Positions 10,731 through 37,104 are shown, numbered from the stretch's first letter. The stretch is 64,000 nt of DNA from a candidate division WWE3 bacterium (GCA_012798115.1 JAAZNV010000009.1:10156-74155), one strand, 5' to 3'. A program made the numbers and translations. Notes: generated by a model from the letters alone, not told the origin.

Positions 10731-11294
10731 ATGAGTACATCAACTTTACTTAAATCATTCATCAAAAACCCACCAAATACTTCCTATCAAGGAAGAGATA
10801 ACGATGAACGCATAATACTTGTTATTAGGAAAAGTTTAGTTGCTGTTTACAAATGGGTACTTATGTTCATTTTGCTCTTAATCATTCCAATATTTTTAAT
10901 GCCTTGGTTAGCAAGTTTGCAATACAACAACTACTTCATATTCACTGCTGGATTCATTCGCTGCTTAACTGCCTTTTGGTACTTATTCTCTATTGGTTTT
11001 ACTTTTCAAAACTTCTTGAATTGGTATTTTGAAGTGCTTTTAGTTACAAATAAGAAAGTTGTAGATATAGACAACTCTTGTACCAATATTTCAGAAGCCA
11101 CCTTAAACAACATTCAAGATGTAACATCAAAAATAAGCAAAGGATGGGAACAAATATTAAATATTGGGTCGATATATATTCAAACAGCCGCAGAAAGAGA
11201 AGAGTTTGAGTTTGATACTATAGATAATCCTTCATTTGTCAGGGATGCTATAGCAGATTTAATTTCAAAACATAAAGGACACCATGGACATTAG
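10731..11294 (+). CDS. Membrane protein with two TM helices and bacterial PH (bPH_2/YdbS-like) domain (tentative)
   Basis: Two adjacent hydrophobic helices followed by a ~100-aa soluble domain with a His-rich tail (HKGHHGH). Confidence 0.35.
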   Translation: MSTSTLLKSFIKNPPNTSYQGRDNDERIILVIRKSLVAVYKWVLMFILLLIIPIFLMPWLASLQYNNYFIFTAGFIRCLTAFWYLFSIGFTFQNFLNWYFEVLLVTNKKVVDIDNSCTNISEATLNNIQDVTSKISKGWEQILNIGSIYIQTAAEREEFEFDTIDNPSFVRDAIADLISKHKGHHGH

Positions 11295-17795: not shown

Positions 17796-18827
17796 CTAAA
17801 GTTTATCCATTATTCCCAAAGAAGGGTTAACTTCAACGTTTTCATATCCAACGGATTTATTGTTGAAGTATGCTGCACTAGCAATATAAACAGCATTATC
17901 AGTACACAATCTAATTGGAGGTACTTGAGTTGAAATACCAAGTTTATCTGCTTCCTTTTTCACTTCTTCTCTTAAGTGGATATTTGCAGACACACCACCT
18001 CCTAACATTATTGTTTTAACATTAAACTTCCTAGCTGCTCTAATTGTTTTTTTTACTAATACTTCAACTACAGCTTCTTCAAATTCTCTAGCAATAACTT
18101 CCTGTGGATATTGATTAAGTTCTATTATCCTTTTAGATGCAGTTTTTAGACCAGAAAACGAAAAATCAAAGTTATCTTGATCAACCATAGGTCTTGGGAG
18201 TCTTCCTTTGATAGTATTTTCATCACACTCTAAAGCTTTCTTAGAAAGAATGGCTCCTCCTAAATACTTGGATAAACCTAAAAGCCTTGCCACCTTATCA
18301 TAAGCTTCTCCAACAGCATCATCTAAAGTTCCACCAAGATACTCAAAATTCCCATGATCTTTCATCAAAACCAAATCAGTATGCCCACCACTAACAAGCA
18401 AAACAATAGCTGGAAGTAATAACTCTTGTGTGTTATTCACAAAATTTCCATATATGTGGCCAACTAGGTGGTTAACAGGGATAAGGGGTTTATTTAAGAA
18501 CAAAGACAACGCTTTAGCAGCTTCAACCCCAACAACTAACGACCCTATAAGACCAGGTCCTACTGTCACTGCAACTGCATCTATACCCCTATAGCAATCT
18601 TCAAGTGTATCAAACTTTTTTTCTTTTCTATATTTTTCAAAACATTCAGAAATTACGGGGGTGATAAATTCAACTTGTTTTCTCGCTGCAACTTCAGGAA
18701 CAATACCCCCAGTTTTCTCATGAAACTCTTTTGACGATGCAACAACACTACATATTTCCCTTGTACCACTTTCAACGACTGCTGCTGCTGTTTCATCACA
18801 GGATGTTTCAATACCAAATATGATCAT
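17796..18827 (-). CDS. tsaD: tRNA N6-adenosine threonylcarbamoyltransferase (Kae1/YgjD family)
   Basis: MIIFGIETSCDETAAAVV...VSGGHTDL...GGVSAN; TsaD signature blocks. Confidence 0.9.
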   Translation of the reverse strand: MIIFGIETSCDETAAAVVESGTREICSVVASSKEFHEKTGGIVPEVAARKQVEFITPVISECFEKYRKEKKFDTLEDCYRGIDAVAVTVGPGLIGSLVVGVEAAKALSLFLNKPLIPVNHLVGHIYGNFVNNTQELLLPAIVLLVSGGHTDLVLMKDHGNFEYLGGTLDDAVGEAYDKVARLLGLSKYLGGAILSKKALECDENTIKGRLPRPMVDQDNFDFSFSGLKTASKRIIELNQYPQEVIAREFEEAVVEVLVKKTIRAARKFNVKTIMLGGGVSANIHLREEVKKEADKLGISTQVPPIRLCTDNAVYIASAAYFNNKSVGYENVEVNPSLGIMDKL

Positions 18828-26574: not shown

Positions 26575-27777
26575 CTAAATTCCTAGTATCTCCTTATAAA
26601 TAATAGACGCAGCTACTGTATACAACCAATCAGAACTTAATAACTCTCCTGTGGCATAAGATACTTTTGATAAATCAGATAAGGATAATTTGGCTATCTC
26701 TAGACTAGCTTTAAATGGAATTGTTTTAGTCCATGGTTCTTCTTTTAGAGCGTTTTCAATATCTGGTATTTCAGCTCCACATCCGGATAGAAATATTTTG
26801 TTTGAAAACATTTTTATTCCAGAAAAATCTTCAAATAGCAACTTAATTCCATCAATCCACAAGCTTGTTATTCCTTTCAAGCATTTCTCGACGGTTATCC
26901 TCTCACTTTCTGAAAGTTTTTCTTGGTTGTACATATTTAATACATTTTCAGCATCTTTTGGTGATAAACCCATGTTTAACCCCACTGCTTCTATGAAGTG
27001 TGTATGTCCAATATTTAGGGTTTTAGATGAAACTATGCCACCACCAAATACAACTCCTACATCAGTTGAGTCTTCTGCAATACTAATTAAGACAAAATCT
27101 AGAATGTTTTTTGGAGGGTTTTTAAACCATTCAACAACTGAATACATCTGAGATCCTAATGCAATTAATTCAAGGCCTGATTTTTTAATTATTCCTTGAA
27201 TGGATTTAACGTGAAAACTTGGAGCAAAAGAATTGTACACTGCAGCTTCAATTGTCTCCCCACGCTGGCCCTCAAGTATTGCTACATTTTGATTATCTAT
27301 TTTTAAATAAATGTCAGACGTTGTTATTGAATCTAGTTCTAAATCTGGATCTCCAGTGTTCTGAAGAACTTTGTTATGTGCTTGAATATATGAAGCTTCT
27401 GTAATTCTGGAGTAAAGTTCTTCCACCTCATCAGCCTTAATAGGATCTGTTGTTGCTCTTTTTAGTCTTACCGTTGTAGTAAGTCCTAGTGTAATTCCGC
27501 CATCAATAGCAATTATTGTTTTTCTTGTTTTATCCTCTAAATTTTCTGTTGCTTTACTAACAACCTCTTTTATTGCTTCGCTAACCCCTTCTTTATTAAT
27601 AACCATTCCATTCCTTACGTAACCTTTCTCTAGGTTCTTTTTTCCTGACCCAATTATTTTAAATAAATCCCCATCGAAAAAGAATGCAACACATCTAACA
27701 TCCTTAGCATTTACATTCAAAGATAAGAACTTATTTGTGTTGGTATCTACTTTTTCTAAAAAAGGCAGATTAAACAT
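26575..27777 (-). CDS. Actin-fold ATPase of the FtsA/PilM family
   Basis: N-terminal glycine-rich phosphate loop region and a GHTHFIEAVGLNMGLSPKDAENVL block resembling the FtsA/PilM GG...AE..K motif; 400 aa. No ftsZ nearby. Confidence 0.5.
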   Translation of the reverse strand: MFNLPFLEKVDTNTNKFLSLNVNAKDVRCVAFFFDGDLFKIIGSGKKNLEKGYVRNGMVINKEGVSEAIKEVVSKATENLEDKTRKTIIAIDGGITLGLTTTVRLKRATTDPIKADEVEELYSRITEASYIQAHNKVLQNTGDPDLELDSITTSDIYLKIDNQNVAILEGQRGETIEAAVYNSFAPSFHVKSIQGIIKKSGLELIALGSQMYSVVEWFKNPPKNILDFVLISIAEDSTDVGVVFGGGIVSSKTLNIGHTHFIEAVGLNMGLSPKDAENVLNMYNQEKLSESERITVEKCLKGITSLWIDGIKLLFEDFSGIKMFSNKIFLSGCGAEIPDIENALKEEPWTKTIPFKASLEIAKLSLSDLSKVSYATGELLSSDWLYTVAASIIYKEILGI

Positions 27778-27801: not shown

Positions 27802-30210
27802 TTAAAACGGAAAGTTTGTTCGGTTTATGCTTGGTTCTTCTTGTGAGGCAGGTTCTTCTGAAAGTCTTCTGTTAATGAACTCTTCAACTTCTTGAACAGG
27901 AGTTCCATATTTTATTCTTGATAATTCTCTAATCTCGTCTGCTACCCTAGGATCTTTTTTGACAGAAGATAGGTCATTCCAATCTATCCATAAAGAAAAG
28001 GGTGGGGAAGGCTGCCCTCTTACTAAAAGCCTCATATAAGCATTTCCTGTTGGAAGATTGCTTAAATCTTGTTTTGTAAATGTTGGTGCAAACTGAGGTT
28101 CTAAAAATTCTGCATCTTCTACACCGACTCTAAAAGAACATATTGTTCCAACGTTTCCAAACACAGCTTCTTTTATATCTTCTTCAAGTTGTTGAATAAA
28201 CTGATGTGCTACAGTCAAATTAAGCTTGTATTTTCTAGCTTCTGAAAGGATAGTAGCAAAATCAGGTGTGGCAAAATTTTGAAACTCATCTACATACAAG
28301 AAGAAATTAGGAAAATCTCCATGAAGCTTGTGTCTTCTTAACGCTGATGCAAGTATTCTTGGGACGAACAATAATCCGATAAAGTTGGAGTTTTCTTCAC
28401 CAATTTTCCCTTTTGCAAGGTCCACCAAAAGTATTTTCTTCTCAGCCATTATTTGGTCAAAGTTGAATGAGGATTTAGGTTGTCCAATTATATTTCTCAT
28501 AGTTTTATCTGTTGTAATTCTGTCGAATTTAGACACAAAGTATCCCATTGTTTCGCCTTTCCTACTTGCTGTTGTTTTAGCCATCTCATCTGTCCAGTAT
28601 CTTCTAACAAGAGGATCAGTTAGCTTGTCTAAAAATTTCTTGGAGTAGCTCTCGTCAATAAATAATCTCAAAACATCTATCATTGTTGCTTCTGGATCAA
28701 CCATTGCAGTAAGCATCACATTTCTAATTGATCTCTCAAGAAGAGGGCCCATTATTCCTTGCTTGTTTGGATCATATAGTTTGTAGAGTAGGGCAATAAA
28801 TGCATTTATTATCATATTTTTTTCTTCATCAGTTTGAGCTTCAAGTAAGTTGAGTCCTAAAGGCCTTTCCGTATCTGCAGCATCAAACAAAATGACATCC
28901 TCTTTCCTTTCTGGGGGTATTTTTTGAAGTAGCTCGTCAATGTCTGTTCCATGGGGGTCAATAATTGCAACCCCTTCTCCTCTTTTAATATCTTGGAGTG
29001 CGCACCACATTAAGAATTGAGACTTTCCAGATCCTGTTTGTCCAACTATATACATATGTCTTGTTCTATCTTCGTCAAGCATATGAATTTCCTTTTCCAC
29101 TCCTCTAAATATACTTTTCCCTAAGAAGATTCCTTCATCTGGTAGCTCTACTGGAGCAGAGGATTTTCTAGCGATAAGCCACAAAATATTGGGTGTACCA
29201 ATGTCTTTGTTTGGAAAATGAAATACTGTAGCCATTTCTATATTGTTTAATACAGAAACGTTTGAGTATAACTGTATGCTAAGCATTGGAATGTTTATGT
29301 TTTTAATTCTTAATCTTCTGTATATGAAATCATTTACGTATTTTTTGGGGGATATTAAGAATCTTCTTACAAATCTGTTGTATGAAACATCTGTAAACTG
29401 TTCAAATGCCCCTACCATATTATGCATTTGAGAATCTGCAGTCATCTTATCACTTGCAACTGATACTATTCTTATTTTTATATAAAACCCTGGATTGGAT
29501 ATCTTGTTCTCAACTCCTTCAAGAAACTTTTCATCTATATTTATCTTCTTGTCTGGATTTGCTGCTTTTGCTCTAACATTAGATATAAATCTTCTACCTG
29601 CCATTCTCCAATCATCATCTGCAGGTTGGATTACGTACTGAACAGCAGTTACTTGATCCACCCTCATTTTACTCATAGCTGATGTTATAGGGCTTAAAGA
29701 ATCACTCTTTAAATCTTCATATTGTTTTATTGGATAGAAAGCAGGTCCTTTGAGCTTTAACTCTGTAATTCTAGTAAATTTTCCTCTATCCCATACTTCA
29801 TGTGGTTTTACTATATCTACTTGAGCAGCAGGGTACGCTGCATTTATTTGTTTTTCCACAAGAGATGCAATTTCATCAGGTGTTACGACGTAAAAAGCTA
29901 TTCCTTCTGCCTTAGAAACTATTTCAAAGGATATTCTATATTGCCCTGTAAATAATGCTTTCCAAAAACCTTTTTTAAACCCAATGAGGCTAGAAAACAT
30001 ATGTTCTGCGGCTTTTATTTCTATCTCATTGTCATTAGGTAAAAGAACTTGAAAAAACGTTAAGTTATATTGTGTTTGTTTCTCCTTTCTTTTCCTAAGC
30101 CATGAAGCAACTCCTAGAGTGATAAATGTCAATAAAAACACAGAAACTATCAAGTAAATAGAAATCCAAAATGTATTGTATAAAGTGTTATTTACTTCCA
30201 TGGGCAGCAA
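27802..30210 (-). CDS. FtsK/HerA-superfamily P-loop ATPase of the T4SS VirB4/VirD4 (TraC/TraG) type, N-terminal TM anchor
   Basis: One N-terminal TM. Walker A HMYIVGQTGSGKSQ followed by GEGVAIIDPHG. Walker B FLYVDEFQNF then SEARKYKLNLTVAHQ, matching the VirB4/VirD4 pattern DEF...aRKyg..l.l.tQ. Confidence 0.6.
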   Translation of the reverse strand: MLPMEVNNTLYNTFWISIYLIVSVFLLTFITLGVASWLRKRKEKQTQYNLTFFQVLLPNDNEIEIKAAEHMFSSLIGFKKGFWKALFTGQYRISFEIVSKAEGIAFYVVTPDEIASLVEKQINAAYPAAQVDIVKPHEVWDRGKFTRITELKLKGPAFYPIKQYEDLKSDSLSPITSAMSKMRVDQVTAVQYVIQPADDDWRMAGRRFISNVRAKAANPDKKINIDEKFLEGVENKISNPGFYIKIRIVSVASDKMTADSQMHNMVGAFEQFTDVSYNRFVRRFLISPKKYVNDFIYRRLRIKNINIPMLSIQLYSNVSVLNNIEMATVFHFPNKDIGTPNILWLIARKSSAPVELPDEGIFLGKSIFRGVEKEIHMLDEDRTRHMYIVGQTGSGKSQFLMWCALQDIKRGEGVAIIDPHGTDIDELLQKIPPERKEDVILFDAADTERPLGLNLLEAQTDEEKNMIINAFIALLYKLYDPNKQGIMGPLLERSIRNVMLTAMVDPEATMIDVLRLFIDESYSKKFLDKLTDPLVRRYWTDEMAKTTASRKGETMGYFVSKFDRITTDKTMRNIIGQPKSSFNFDQIMAEKKILLVDLAKGKIGEENSNFIGLLFVPRILASALRRHKLHGDFPNFFLYVDEFQNFATPDFATILSEARKYKLNLTVAHQFIQQLEEDIKEAVFGNVGTICSFRVGVEDAEFLEPQFAPTFTKQDLSNLPTGNAYMRLLVRGQPSPPFSLWIDWNDLSSVKKDPRVADEIRELSRIKYGTPVQEVEEFINRRLSEEPASQEEPSINRTNFPF

Positions 30211-30514
30211 ATCCTTTTAATGCTTCTTTTTCTTCTAGTGAAGCTAGGCTAGTAATTTTATCTGTTTTATCTAGCAGCTCCGTTTTTGTTTTTGGCTCTA
30301 ACTCTTCTGTTCCTATGAGCGATGAGATAGAATGATCCCCATTACTGTATTCTTGCTGGGGTACTTCTTCTTTTGCTATTGTTAGTACTGTGTCTGATTC
30401 TGCGCTACCTCCATCTTCTGGTATTATTCCAGAAACAAATTCTCGTGAAGCTGCTTGTTGTATGGAATCAGATTCTTCTTGTGGAACTTCACCAATAACA
30501 GGTAGTTTAATCAT
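30188..30514 (-). CDS. Small acidic, low-complexity protein; weakly supported
   Basis: 108 aa rich in E/S/T, overlapping the ATPase start by 23 nt. No motif. Confidence 0.25.
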   Translation of the reverse strand: MIKLPVIGEVPQEESDSIQQAASREFVSGIIPEDGGSAESDTVLTIAKEEVPQQEYSNGDHSISSLIGTEELEPKTKTELLDKTDKITSLASLEEKEALKGFAAHGSK

Positions 30515-31360: not shown

Positions 31361-31600
31361 ATGGACGATAATTTAACACAAGCAATACCAACAGACCAAG
31401 CGCAAGATACAGGACTACCACCTCAAGATGGTAATTCTGCAATCCCAGCAATGGATTCAACAGAAGAAAAAGTAGAAGAACCTACATTAGAAGAAGCTCC
31501 TATAACAGAGGCTCCTTTGGATGAAGGTTTAGAAGAGCCTGAAGAAGAGTCCTTTGAGGATGAAATAGTTGATGATGATTCTGGTGATAGCAAGCTTTAA
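31361..31600 (+). CDS. Small highly acidic, probably disordered protein
   Basis: 79 aa, about 35% D/E. SD-like GGAAGGGG 8 nt upstream of the ATG. Confidence 0.35.
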   Translation: MDDNLTQAIPTDQAQDTGLPPQDGNSAIPAMDSTEEKVEEPTLEEAPITEAPLDEGLEEPEEESFEDEIVDDDSGDSKL

Positions 31601-31634
31601 GTTCTGGTTTTTGTTTAACAAGTCTTGTTAAAGA

Positions 31635-31661
31635 AAGAAGGGCGCTTGAGGCGCCCTTCTT
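31635..31661 (-). terminator. Rho-independent terminator of dnaK (GC-rich 11-bp stem, 5-nt loop)
   Basis: AAGAAGGGCGC-ttgag-GCGCCCTTCTT. On the minus strand it is followed by TTCTTTCTTT. Lies 20 nt downstream of the dnaK stop. Confidence 0.7.
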
Positions 31662-31681: not shown

Positions 31682-33565
31682 TTACTCAACTACTTCGCCT
31701 TCAACAGGTTCATCTTTCTTATCTTTATTACCGTCTTCTGGATCTTTTTGCTCATTAGAATTGCCTTGCTCTCCTTGTTTATACATGTATTGTCCAATCT
31801 TTTGCATTGATAGAGAAAGTTCTTGAGTTTTTTGCTTTAAAGTTTCTGCTGATGCAGTTTGAAGATTGTCTTTAATATCTTTTACTTTATCTTCAATTTC
31901 CTTTTTAACATCTGCTGGTATTTTATCTCCAGCTTCTCTCAGTGATTTTTCTGCTGTATAACACAAACCATCTGCTTGATTTCTTGCTTCAACTTCTTCT
32001 TTTCTCTTTTTATCTTCTTCAGCATGAGATTCTGATTCTTTTACCATCTTTTCAACTTCTTCTTTTGATAATCCAGTTCCTCCTTGGATTGTTATCTTTT
32101 GTTCCTTTCCTGATGCTTTATCTTTTGCAGTAACATTTAAGATACCATTGGCATCAATATCAAAAGTAACTTCAACTTGAGGCATACCTCTTGGAGCTGG
32201 AGGAATTCCATCAAGAATGAATCTTCCAAGAGATTTATTGTCGGAAGCCATTTCTCTTTCTCCCTGCAATACATTTATTTCAACACTTGTTTGATTATCA
32301 GCAGCAGTAGAAAACACTTGGCTTTTTTGTGTTGGAATAGTCGTATTTCTGTTTATAAGAGGAGTGGAGACACCCCCAAGGGTTTCTATACCTAATGTCA
32401 AGGGAGTTACATCGAGTAAAAGTACATCTTTTACATCTCCTGCAAGTACGCCTCCTTGAATTGCTGCACCTACAGCAACAACTTCGTCAGGGTTAATGCT
32501 TTTATTTGGTTCTTTACCAAAAAAGTCTTTAACAATTTGATTAACCTTAGGCATTCTCGTCATTCCTCCAACTAAAACTACTTCGTCTATCTGGTTCTTT
32601 GAAAGACCTGAGTCTTTTAAGGCATTTTCAATAGGAGATATTGTCTTTTGGATTAAGTCATCCACCAGTTGTTCTAGTTTAGATCTGGAGAGTTTGATAT
32701 CTAAATGTTTAGGTCCGCTCTTGTCTGCTGTGATAAACGGGATATTAATTTCAGTTTCCATTGTTGAAGAAAGTTCTATCTTAGCTTTTTCTGCTGCATC
32801 CTTAAGTCTTTGCATTGCTTGTCTATCACTAGACAAGTCAATTCCGTTTTCTTTCTTAAATTCCTCAAGAAGGTAGTTTATTACTCTTTGATCAAAATCA
32901 TCCCCACCAAGATATGTATCTCCATTTGTAGCTTTTACTTCAAAGACGCCATCTCCAATCTCAAGTACTGATACATCAAAAGTTCCACCCCCAAGATCAT
33001 ATACGACAATCTTCTCATTCTTTTTCTTATCAAGACCATACGCTAAGGATGAAGCTGTGGGCTCGTTAATGATTCTTTTGACTTCAAATCCAGCTATCTG
33101 GCCTGCTTCCTTTGTAGCTGTTCTTTGGGAATCATTAAAGTATGCAGGAACTGTGATTATTGCTTCTGTTATTTTTTGGCCTAAGAAAGTTTCAGCATCA
33201 GATTTCATTTTAGCCAATATCTTTGCAGATACTTCTTGAGGTGTGTAAGTTTTTCCTTCTATTTCTACACATGCAAGACCGTTTTGTCCTTCAACTATCT
33301 CATAAGGATAGTTCTTCTTTATTTTTTGAACCTCAGGGTCTGAATACTTTCTACCCATTAATCTTTTGATTGAAAAGATAGTGTTTTTTGGGTTTACCAC
33401 TTGTTGTCTTTTTGCTGGAACACCAACTATGTTTTGGTCTGGCACTACTATTGAAGGAGTAGTGTTTCCACCTTCCACGTTTGGTATTACTTTTGTGGTG
33501 CCACCCTCCATTACAGCCATACAGCTGTTAGTTGTTCCTAAGTCTATTCCTAATATTTTTGACAT
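31682..33565 (-). CDS. dnaK: Chaperone DnaK (Hsp70)
   Basis: [18 protein letters not shown]...; full Hsp70 signatures. Confidence 0.97.
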
Positions 33566-33579
33566 ATTTTCCTCCTTAA

Positions 33580-34074
33580 TTATTTACCAACTACTACTTT
33601 GGCTGGTCTTAATAATTTTCCATTTAATAAGTAACCATTACTTAGTACTTTTAAAACTTTGTCTTTTTCACCTTCACCAGTCTCAACAGCTTCCATTTCA
33701 TTTGAATTAAAATCCTTTCCCAATGCTTTTATCTCTTCAACGCCCATAAATGAAAGTGTTTGCTTAAAATCTTTTAATGTTAGTTCTAAACCTTTATCTT
33801 TAATGTGTTCTCCAATTTTTTCTAAGTTATCCAAAAATGGAAGGATATCTTCTATTGTTTGTTTTTTTATATAAAAAGCTAGTTGTTCCTTATCTTCTAA
33901 TACTCTTTTTTCTAAATTTTTGTAATCAGCTAGTGCTCTTTTCCAATTATTCTCCAAGTCTTTCACTTTTCCTTCTAAATGTTTAATGTGTTTTTGGCAC
34001 TTTTCTAGCTCTTCAATTTTTTTGTCTTTCACTTCTTTCATATTTGAATCCAGGCAGTGAGTATCTATTACCAA
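33580..34074 (-). CDS. grpE: Nucleotide exchange factor GrpE
   Basis: Coiled-coil N-terminus and C-terminal GrpE beta-domain (…[14 protein letters not shown]). Positioned between hrcA and dnaK. Confidence 0.8.
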
Positions 34075-34790
34075 GAACCACCTAGTTCTTCCAAAAGTTT
34101 CTTAGTATATTTGACTATTGGAATTATTCTTGAGTAGTTCAGTCTTGATGGTCCTAAGACTGCAAGATAACCTCCCTTTTCACCTATCTTAAATGGTGTA
34201 AAAATTATTGTACCTTTTTGTAGATTTTCTGTTGGAATTTCGTCCCCAATTAGTGTGTAAATATCTTGTCCTGGAGCAACACTTTGAAATATTCTGTCTA
34301 ATATTTCATAGCTATCTAATATTCTTAATGCTGATTTAGCAATGTCTATATCCCAAAATTCTTTGTATTCAAGAACATTAACTGCTCCTGCATACGTTAC
34401 AAAACCTTCGTTTGTTGTTGCTATCGATAGGCATCCTGTTGCTTCTGACATTGCAAGGGTAGTTTCTCTAAGTAGTTTTTCTACCTCAAATCTATTTGTC
34501 CAAAGCCTTTGTTTTAAAGCTACTTCTTGAAGTACTGGTAACTCTTCTTCTTGCATCATTTCTTCTATGTACATTTTGTATGCCATTTTGGTTGGAACTC
34601 TCCCAGACGATGTATGAAGCATTTCAAGAAAACCCATGTCAATGAGTTTTGCCATTTCATTCCTTATTGTTGCTGGAGAGCAGTGTAAGTTATGGTTTCT
34701 GACTATCTCAACAGACCCAACGGGTTCTGCTGTGTTTATGTAGTCATCTATTATTGCTTGAAGTAGTTCTATTTGTCTTTCTGTTAACAT
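34068..34790 (-). CDS. hrcA: Heat-inducible transcription repressor HrcA (compact, 240 aa)
   Basis: MLTERQIELLQAIIDDYINTAEPVGSVEI...; winged-helix N-terminus typical of HrcA. Overlaps grpE by 7 nt. Confidence 0.8.
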   Translation of the reverse strand: MLTERQIELLQAIIDDYINTAEPVGSVEIVRNHNLHCSPATIRNEMAKLIDMGFLEMLHTSSGRVPTKMAYKMYIEEMMQEEELPVLQEVALKQRLWTNRFEVEKLLRETTLAMSEATGCLSIATTNEGFVTYAGAVNVLEYKEFWDIDIAKSALRILDSYEILDRIFQSVAPGQDIYTLIGDEIPTENLQKGTIIFTPFKIGEKGGYLAVLGPSRLNYSRIIPIVKYTKKLLEELGGSW

Positions 34791-34791
34791 A

Positions 34792-34827
34792 TTATCAGTA
34801 ATATACCATGAGTGCTAAGAGTGTCAA
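34792..34827 (-). promoter_or_regulatory. hrcA-grpE-dnaK promoter (-35 TTGACA, 16-nt spacer, -10 TATATT) giving an essentially leaderless hrcA mRNA, overlapped by a CIRCE-like inverted repeat
   Basis: Minus-strand reading: ggggTTGACActcttagcactcatggTATATTactgataatATG. The element TTAGCACTC-N9-TACTGATAA (34792-34818) has a perfect left CIRCE half-site and 9-nt spacer, but only 6 of 9 matches in the right half. Confidence 0.5.
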
Positions 34828-34945
34828 CCCCTATTTGCAAAACATTATGCGGTATCCGATCAGATTGTATTGCTGACTTTAAAATGAGGGACTGCATTAG
34901 GGAGAAAATACTAGAAAAAGACAAAGTGAAGAAGTAATAAAAGAT

Positions 34946-34973
34946 TAGCCAATCTAAAACACCTGATTGGCTA
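34946..34973 (-). terminator. Rho-independent terminator of lepA (9-bp stem TAGCCAATC/GATTGGCTA, 10-nt loop)
   Basis: The inverted repeat overlaps the lepA stop codon. On the minus strand it is followed by TCTTTTATT. Confidence 0.55.
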
Positions 34974-36834: not shown

Positions 36835-37104
36835 TTAAGTACTCTCTACCTTTTCAATACCTGGCTGATCTTTTAGGAAAATAATTATTTCCTCAGCCAT
36901 TTTCTTAGAACAGCTTAATTTGAGCTTCGTTCCATTTTCGTAGTTCTCCCCAACCACTGGTATCGCAAACTTTCTTATCAAAAAGAGTTCAAGATTAGGG
37001 TTGCAAGGTTCAACCCAAATGTATTGCTTACCAAAGATACACATGAACACTCTCCTTCTTGTATGTTTAGCAGAGATTATATAGATATGATACTTTTTAA
37101 TCAA
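36835..37104 (-). CDS. Small hypothetical protein
   Basis: 89 aa, no recognised motif. Ends 2 nt after the murJ stop. Confidence 0.3.
   Translation of the reverse strand: MIKKYHIYIISAKHTRRRVFMCIFGKQYIWVEPCNPNLELFLIRKFAIPVVGENYENGTKLKLSCSKKMAEEIIIFLKDQPGIEKVEST

Follow-up and report, generated by a model that had tools for sequence, protein, structure and literature searches.

HrcA, CIRCE and the hrcA locus

The HrcA repressor and its operator, the inverted repeat that controls chaperone expression (CIRCE), form one of the most widespread heat-shock controls in bacteria, and their presence before hrcA-grpE-dnaK is ordinary. Here we describe such an operon in a stretch of 64,000 nucleotides (nt) of DNA from a candidate division WWE3 bacterium (GCA_012798115.1, JAAZNV010000009.1:10156-74155), referred to below as 'the window', with positions counted from its first letter. 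The organism is a WWE3-like Patescibacterium, one of a group of ultra-small bacteria, and is uncultured. We think it likely that the operon has a single sigma-70-type promoter, at 34792-34827 on the minus strand, that an HrcA operator is interleaved with it and represses it, and that the message begins at, or almost at, the hrcA start codon.

Operons of the Bacillus subtilis type, hrcA-grpE-dnaK, are under CIRCE/HrcA control (Zuber & Schumann 1994, as cited in PMC4245973). Loci that encode long HrcA proteins (~335 amino acids, aa; L093-L119), obtained in the same metagenome scan as the relatives considered below, served as controls for this classical layout. In these, the promoter is TTGACA-17-TGnTATTTT. 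CIRCE is perfect (18/18) and lies downstream of the -10, in the transcribed leader; between it and the start codon, 10-20 nt farther on, there is a GGAGG-type ribosome-binding site. The window locus resembles B. subtilis-type and control loci in having a TTAGCACTC-N9-GAGTGCTAA-type repeat, with hrcA placed first in the operon, where it would regulate itself, and it resembles the controls in having a housekeeping, sigma-70-type promoter with TTGACA and a TG-extended -10. Unlike in the controls, the repeat lies ~25 nt farther upstream, so that the -10 sits in the CIRCE spacer and dictates a T at the start of the right arm, and the message would be leaderless. The layout in Patescibacteria is a distinct geometry of the HrcA/CIRCE system, in which the operator is fused with the core promoter.

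Two further groups of described systems bear on this locus. In Mycoplasma gallisepticum, CIRCE sites have been found with two or fewer mismatches to the canonical sequence, and transcripts mostly have leaders of ~15 nt (PMC4245973). The likeness to the Mollicutes (PMC4245973) lies in a reduced genome, in the retention of HrcA among few regulators, and in the occurrence of CIRCE at dnaK and other chaperone genes; the difference is that here the consensus has been altered through fusion with the promoter. Leaderless genes of the Actinobacteria/Deinococcus type are exemplified by Mycobacterium tuberculosis (Cortes et al. 2013, as cited in PMC12641261). These share with the window a -10 directly before the start codon, the lack of a ribosome-binding site, and occurrence at the first genes of operons, genome-wide. 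They differ in phylum, and in that the gap at hrcA is 9 nt rather than 6-7, because the operator arm must fit. The literature that we searched contained no description of leaderless initiation in the candidate phyla radiation (CPR)/Patescibacteria, and nothing relevant on HrcA/CIRCE in these organisms or on the inserted domain of HrcA. CPR ribosomes have a shortened bS1, and in some Parcubacteria the anti-Shine-Dalgarno motif is lost (PMC9297842).

Anatomy of the promoter and operator

Read on the minus strand, the -35 hexamer TTGACA (34827-34822; also found by the promoter scan) and the -10 hexamer TATATT (34805-34800) are separated by 16 nt, and a TG (34808-34807) makes the latter an extended -10, TGgTATATT (34808-34800). 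The site has, by sequence, what characterizes sigma-70-type promoters, namely both hexamers, a spacing in the range of 16-18 nt and the upstream TG, and the promoter scan gave it 11/12 plus the TG, the top score of the region. The left arm of CIRCE, TTAGCACTC (34818-34810), lies within the -35/-10 spacer and matches the canonical arm at 9/9 positions. The right arm, TACTGATAA (34800-34792), spans the discriminator and the expected transcription start; compared with canonical GAGTGCTAA it matches at 6/9, and all three CIRCE mismatches fall there. Between the arms is a spacer of exactly 9 nt, atggtatat, which is filled by the extended -10, the final T of the -10 being also the first base of the right arm. 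Nine nucleotides, actgataat, separate the -10 from the ATG of hrcA (34790-34788), and a single one separates that ATG from the end of the operator. The whole promoter-operator region reads gggTTGACActcTTAGCACTCaTGgTATATTACTGATAAtATG. The original prediction had described TTGACA-16 nt-TATATT with the ATG 9 nt past the -10, and over that -10 a CIRCE-like repeat with a perfect left arm and spacer and a right arm of 6/9; both descriptions hold to the base.

The position of the start codon is itself well fixed. An in-frame TAG at 34817-34815 excludes any hrcA start upstream of 34790, which makes this ATG the earliest possible one, and it is also the homologous start: all 20 aligned homologues have the N-terminus ML[TS][ED]RQ, here MLTERQ. 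An alternative promoter, TTAGCA-16-GATAAT (9/12), was rejected, as its start would fall within the coding sequence and the conserved N-terminus would be lost.

Motif matching alone would not single this site out. It is the sole match to TTAGCACTC-N9-GAGTGCTAA at three or fewer mismatches in the window (34818-34792), and a match of that quality appears in 7/100 shuffles of the window; promoter matches of at least 11/12 number four, where 3.3 are expected. Taken singly, then, the CIRCE match and the promoter match are each at chance level in this sequence (34% G+C), and the significance of the feature comes from its position and its conservation. CIRCE scans in the literature use a cut-off of two or fewer mismatches (PMC4245973), and the site, with three, falls outside it. 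An Rfam scan of the whole window gave no match.

Conservation in close relatives

Twelve metagenome loci encode HrcA proteins 74-92% identical to that of the window. All 12 have different genes upstream and flanks that cannot be aligned, and all 12 keep cTTGACAc-N2-TTAGCACTC-RTGnTATAT-TAYTGATAA-t-ATG nearly unchanged and at the same spacing. From -38 to -1, the fraction of sequences that carry the majority base is 0.82-0.92; farther upstream it falls to ~0.44, and no conservation was seen there among these relatives. Third codon positions in the first 20 hrcA codons give 0.70, against which the discriminator region, at 0.92, is conserved beyond synonymous sites. The left arm is essentially invariant in the clade, the only departure being a C at arm position 1 in L090, and the right arm TACTGATAA is kept in 9 of the 11 unique clade sequences, with A at its position 6 in 11/11. 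This pattern indicates that the block, including the supposedly degenerate arm, is under purifying selection. Lack of conservation of the half-site in relatives had been named beforehand as one observation that would refute the original prediction, and the prediction passes this test; both arms, at orthologous positions, with their spacing and their distance to the ATG, are kept in 12/12 close relatives.

A promoter-operator module in Patescibacteria

We extended the comparison to 80 genome loci from WWE3 and Microgenomates-type Patescibacteria, in which HrcA is 35-60% identical to the window protein. Counting the close relatives as well, a CIRCE-like repeat with TGnTATAW in its spacer follows TTGACA at 2-5 nt in 89/93 loci, and the same promoter-operator module precedes hrcA in ~87 unique Patescibacteria loci. 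The consensus of the 76 unique sites from outside the window's clade is TTGACA-N2-5-TTAGCA-S-TC-RTGnTATAW-TA-B-TGCTAA. Its spacer, RTGnTATAW followed by T, places the extended -10 within CIRCE. At these 76 sites, position 1 of the right arm is T in 61 and the canonical G in just 8, because it is also the last T of the -10, and at position 3 there are 29 G, 26 T and 20 C. Palindromic covariation between position 3 of the right arm and position 7 of the left was looked for and not found; every combination occurs, so these two positions are not read symmetrically. Position 6, finally, is C in 73/76 of the non-clade sites and A (A34795) in all 11 clade sequences.

This substitution of A for C, fixed throughout the clade, is the only departure of the window site from the phylum consensus. 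Two of the three right-arm mismatches are therefore the norm of the lineage, and only the change at position 6 is special. A log-odds matrix trained on 75 Patescibacteria sites outside the window's clade gave the window site (a 27-mer) 34.3 bits, where the training median is 33.5, so that it matches the operator as found before hrcA in the phylum; the maximum in 100 random 64-kb sequences was 19.5 bits, and the next-best site in the window scored 7.6. The operator had been described as 'half-degenerate', and in this respect the original prediction does not stand: two mismatches are typical of the phylum and the third is common to the clade (11/11). What is new here is that operator and core promoter appear to form one composite element, with the consequence that the textbook consensus scores such sites as 'degenerate' and that scans allowing two mismatches would miss them. 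A second CIRCE-like sequence in the window, TTAGCAGAG-N9-ATATGATAC (37067-37093, between murJ and a small open reading frame, ORF), was dismissed as noise; it has two core mismatches, a level at which ~5.6 sites are expected by chance, and the matrix gives it 4.4 bits.

The same comparisons weigh on a reading in which drift of the right arm has put an end to useful binding by HrcA and has left a strong promoter constitutive. Such decay might be read into the 6/9 match to canonical GAGTGCTAA, into the C-to-A change where 73 of the 76 other loci keep C, and into the failure to reach the threshold of published scans (PMC4245973). We regard it as very improbable, since the arm persists in 9/11 unique clade sequences, and its A in all of them, while the flanks are randomised; since the discriminator is more conserved than synonymous sites; since the same arm recurs in hsp20 promoters of other Patescibacteria; since the lineage matrix places the site above its training median; and since hrcA is intact and conserved.

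Could the block be conserved merely for its promoter and translation-start signals, its likeness to CIRCE being incidental? The -35, the TG, the -10 and the start codon do all lie within it, and the match alone has a chance of ~7% in the window. The arms, however, sit in the -35/-10 spacer and in the discriminator, where RNA polymerase imposes no sequence constraint, and they are conserved nonetheless: TTAGCACTC is essentially invariant in a part of the promoter that sigma-70 leaves free. An exact two-fold symmetry, TTAGCA-N15-TGCTAA, is present in 49/72 other loci, the window's other leaderless-type promoters are without the arms, and heat-shock genes are the only ones at which the module turned up. 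We consider coincidence hardly credible, and prefer to read the block as an interleaved promoter and operator.

The module is not confined to hrcA. Several Microgenomates-type genomes have a second promoter-embedded CIRCE between grpE and dnaK, before dnaK. Additional sites were recorded at L064:4225-4263, L043:4292, L047:1480, L053:2319, L076:4265, L049:540-575 and L056:406; by Pfam identification of the genes, the module precedes dnaK in L064 and hsp20 in L049 and L056. The hsp20 sites bear the window's right arm, TACTGATAA; since the hrcA operator of those genomes has the canonical base at the position in question, TGATAA is at least tolerated within the regulon. At a few sites (L018:4133, L033:4148) it is TTGACA, rather than the -10, that the CIRCE spacer holds. 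Neither the window nor the Patescibacteria loci contained groES/groEL, which might have supplied a second operator for comparison.

Many records of metagenome-assembled genomes (MAGs) with a Patescibacteria-type, 240-aa HrcA and a promoter-embedded CIRCE (L005, L006, L008, L009, L012, L013, L019 and others) are titled 'uncultured Gammaproteobacteria', 'Pseudomonadales', 'Nevskiaceae', 'Methylococcaceae' or 'Vitreimonas'. Probably, the taxonomy of these records is wrong, or the bins are contaminated.

Operator symmetry in the WWE3 branch

The asymmetry of the window site had been tentatively attributed to relaxed operator symmetry in the lineage. This is borne out in part, for the WWE3 branch: a perfect 6+6 core is present in 0/15 WWE3-like loci and in 49/72 of the other Patescibacteria, which have the same short HrcA. 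Within the branch, the core varies. It is TTAGCA...TGATAA in the window's clade, TTAGCA or CTAGCA...TGACAA in L001 and L090, and TTATCA...TGCCAA in L004; L002 and L003 have a symmetric double change, TTATCAC...GTGATAA. On the protein side, WWE3-type and other HrcAs share one recognition helix, S[PA]AT[IV]RNEM, and one wing, HTS[SA]GR.PT. Residues beside them differ along phylogenetic lines (VEIV in WWE3-type proteins vs ETLE in the others, and EML vs xKP).

These observations raise the possibility that specificity has shifted or broadened, i.e. that WWE3-type HrcA has come to prefer other bases at the G/C core position and accepts TTATCA/TGATAA, and that the window operator is functional at full strength rather than tuned down. 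The absence of the perfect TTAGCA/TGCTAA core from all 15 WWE3-like loci, the paired changes in L002 and L003, and the systematic differences of WWE3-type HrcA next to its recognition helix and wing all point this way. Helix and wing are themselves unchanged, though; the left arm in the window's clade retains the canonical G; the differences in the protein are confounded with phylogeny; and the occurrence of TGATAA at hsp20 promoters, in genomes with a canonical hrcA operator, speaks for tolerance and not for a shift. A change of specificity is possible, but on the whole we hold it to be unlikely.

The short HrcA repressor

The hrcA gene (34068-34790, minus strand) encodes a protein of 240 aa that matches the C-terminal and DNA-binding domains of HrcA (PF01628 and PF03444). 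The match to the Pfam HrcA family covers only profile positions 64-215 of 215, without 1-63, and in alignment with canonical, long HrcAs (~340 aa) a single clean gap, 101 columns wide, follows ...LSIATT and ends at NEGFVTYAG.... The full C-terminal HrcA domain, with its insert of ~100 aa, is thus absent. The N-terminal winged helix-turn-helix is present, its helix SxATIRNEM and its wing HTSxGRxPT included; in sequence, residues 2-81 match residues 15-94 of Thermotoga maritima HrcA (1stz; E = 2e-14). An AlphaFold (AF2) model has a pLDDT of 89, and 1stz is its best match in the PDB (TMq 0.80, TMt 0.60). The protein is like T. maritima HrcA in combining an N-terminal winged helix with a C-terminal GAF-like domain, and unlike it in having 240 residues instead of 338, for want of the ~101-column block. 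All 120 of the best HrcA homologues are ~240 aa long, and those with names come from candidate division WWE3 or the 'Patescibacteria group'; the short protein is therefore a lineage form, shared throughout WWE3 and Microgenomates-type Patescibacteria, and not a truncation.

The 2005 structure paper by Liu et al. on T. maritima HrcA reportedly describes the inserted block as the dimerising domain, and this is probably the block that short HrcA lacks. A repressor that is shorter by ~100 residues and would still face an inverted repeat is new, and would offer a natural test of what the insert in HrcA does.

By function, we would place the feature in the HrcA/CIRCE system. It is real and conserved, it lies directly upstream of hrcA-grpE-dnaK, a class I heat-shock operon, in the place where HrcA operators are located, and the cognate repressor, identified by Pfam and by its 1stz fold, is encoded beside it. 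It departs from the textbook in two respects, having more than two mismatches and lacking the full-length HrcA domain, and in both for reasons that are lineage-wide.

A predicted near-leaderless message

The 9 nt before the hrcA ATG contain no purine-rich tract and no Shine-Dalgarno (SD) sequence, and so leave no room for an SD interaction. This arrangement recurs in the window. Among 62 long ORFs, 20 have a -10-like hexamer that ends 4-10 nt before the start codon. The distribution peaks sharply at 6 nt: the gap is exactly 6 nt in 11 of the 62 (seven of these with a TG) and 7 nt in four, giving 15/62 at gaps of 6-7; promoters that abut the start codon are in this sense a recurrent feature of the genome. 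Examples are the ORFs at 10731(+), 17796-18827(-), 26575-27777(-), 30188-30514(-), 51836(+), 55954(+) and 62463(+). A -10-like hexamer at gap 6 stands before 20% of the window's ORFs, before 6.7% of those in the Patescibacteria loci and before none (0%) of those in the long-HrcA controls. Internal operon genes in the window have AGGAGG-type ribosome-binding sites. The pattern suggests that leaderless transcription is widespread in the window genome.

The hrcA gap owes its 9 nt to the right arm, which takes up nine bases, counted from the last T of the -10 (eight beyond the hexamer). In related loci, too, the distance from the end of the arm to the hrcA start codon piles up at the closest position allowed: it is -1 to +1 in 24/87 and seven or less in 39/87. 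Only 1 of these 39 has an SD-like 4-mer after the operator. We also considered whether the relatives with long leaders use SD sequences; this was not supported, an SD-like 4-mer being present in just 6/48. Since the -10 ends 9 nt before the ATG, we predict a leader of 0-3 nt for hrcA, and a near-leaderless message is plausible. If the 6-nt rule of the genome applies, the message would begin with A34793 (5'-AAUAUG); for A34790 to be its first base, the discriminator would have to be unusually long. Of the original claim of a leaderless transcript, one part survives, in that there is no room for a ribosome-binding site. The rest has to be loosened, to 'leaderless or up to 3 nt', as such promoters in this genome use a gap of 6-7 nt and not 9.

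The hrcA message might instead carry a leader, arising by read-through from the upstream gene, lepA, or from an unrecognised upstream promoter, and be translated by SD-independent internal initiation. Related loci lend this some substance, for in 48/87 the distance from operator to start codon is 10-183 nt, mostly without an obvious ribosome-binding site, and these organisms are therefore able to initiate on long, SD-less leaders. At the window locus a hairpin terminator follows lepA, and the promoter scan found no other match of at least 10/12 in the lepA-hrcA spacer; moreover, in close relatives the genes and sequences upstream are altogether different and the promoter stands just as far from hrcA, with no conservation upstream of -38. 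A leadered hrcA message is, in our opinion, improbable.

A message with a leader of 0-3 nt, which we favor, would make hrcA a clear and conserved case within a broader signal, new to us here, of heavy leaderless translation in uncultured bacteria with reduced ribosomes. That signal, if it holds, bears on gene calling and on the assignment of start codons in thousands of MAGs.

The proposed switch

A simple scheme can be drawn from these elements. At normal temperature, the 240-aa HrcA would occupy 34792-34818, covering the -10 and the start site and so precluding an open complex. Stress, in the form of heat or unfolded protein, would inactivate HrcA, and the strong promoter would fire. The transcription start would lie 0-3 nt before the AUG, at A34793 or A34790 as candidates, and the product would be a tricistronic message, the hrcA cistron of which would be read leaderless, and dnaK (and perhaps grpE) from internal ribosome-binding sites. 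The terminator at the end of lepA would isolate the hrcA promoter from upstream transcription, and negative autoregulation would restore repression. The sequences show the anatomy, the gene identities, the limits of the operon, the conservation of each element and the return of the module at other heat-shock genes of relatives; binding by HrcA, occlusion, induction by stress and the exact transcription start are parts of this scheme that we infer.

Several observations weigh against it. The 9-nt gap at hrcA lies in the tail of the genome's gap distribution (mode 6), so that a leader of 2-3 nt seems likelier than a strictly leaderless message, one beginning with the A of the ATG. A right-arm position that is otherwise near-invariant, with C in 73/76 other loci, is A in the window, and this A may reduce the affinity of HrcA. 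And short HrcA lacks the insert that reportedly mediates dimerisation in T. maritima HrcA, yet it would face an inverted repeat.

More broadly, and with somewhat more doubt than confidence, we suggest that Microgenomates and WWE3-type Patescibacteria have rebuilt the heat-shock switch in minimal form. HrcA in this picture would have dispensed with its dimerising insert of ~100 aa; CIRCE would be fused to the promoter; the targets would often be leaderless, leaderless initiation being a major mode for the first genes of operons; and in WWE3 the core, asymmetric or shifted (TGATAA, TTATCA), would reflect altered recognition of the half-site.

The operon and its surroundings

Pfam assignments bear out the predicted identity of the operon, hrcA-grpE-dnaK. 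Downstream of hrcA on the minus strand come grpE (33580-34074; PF01025, E = 2e-32) and dnaK (31682-33565; PF00012, E = 5e-265). The longest ORF for grpE has a TTG start and a 7-nt overlap with the hrcA stop. That start is uncertain; an in-frame ATG lies 11 codons downstream of the TTG, and residue 15 is the first that the Pfam GrpE match covers. The dnaK start is preceded by an AGGAGG ribosome-binding site, its upstream sequence being taaggaggaaaatATG. The operon is not continued by dnaJ.

Both ends of the operon are marked by predicted hairpins. After dnaK, folding indicates an intrinsic terminator (31629-31661, minus strand) with an 11-bp G+C-rich stem followed by UUCUUU, at -20.7 kcal/mol (z = -4.5; 0/200 shuffles as stable). 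Upstream of hrcA, at the end of lepA (identified by Pfam), a 9-bp hairpin followed by a U-rich tract (34946-34973, minus strand) folds at -11.9 kcal/mol (z = -3.2). With terminators after lepA and after dnaK, the transcription unit, as predicted, is therefore hrcA-grpE-dnaK.

A few genes downstream of the chaperone operon, at 27802-30210 on the minus strand, an 802-aa protein is encoded that gives weak matches to NTPases of the HerA/TraG/VirD4 type. The ORFs adjoining it have no Pfam matches; the protein itself may be a type IV coupling-protein-like ATPase. Convergent with dnaK is a small ORF (31361-31600, plus strand; 79 aa) with a GGAAGGGG ribosome-binding site and no Pfam match. It ends, at 31600, 28 nt from the dnaK terminator hairpin and its U-tract (from 31629), and this proximity raises the possibility that the terminator acts in both directions.

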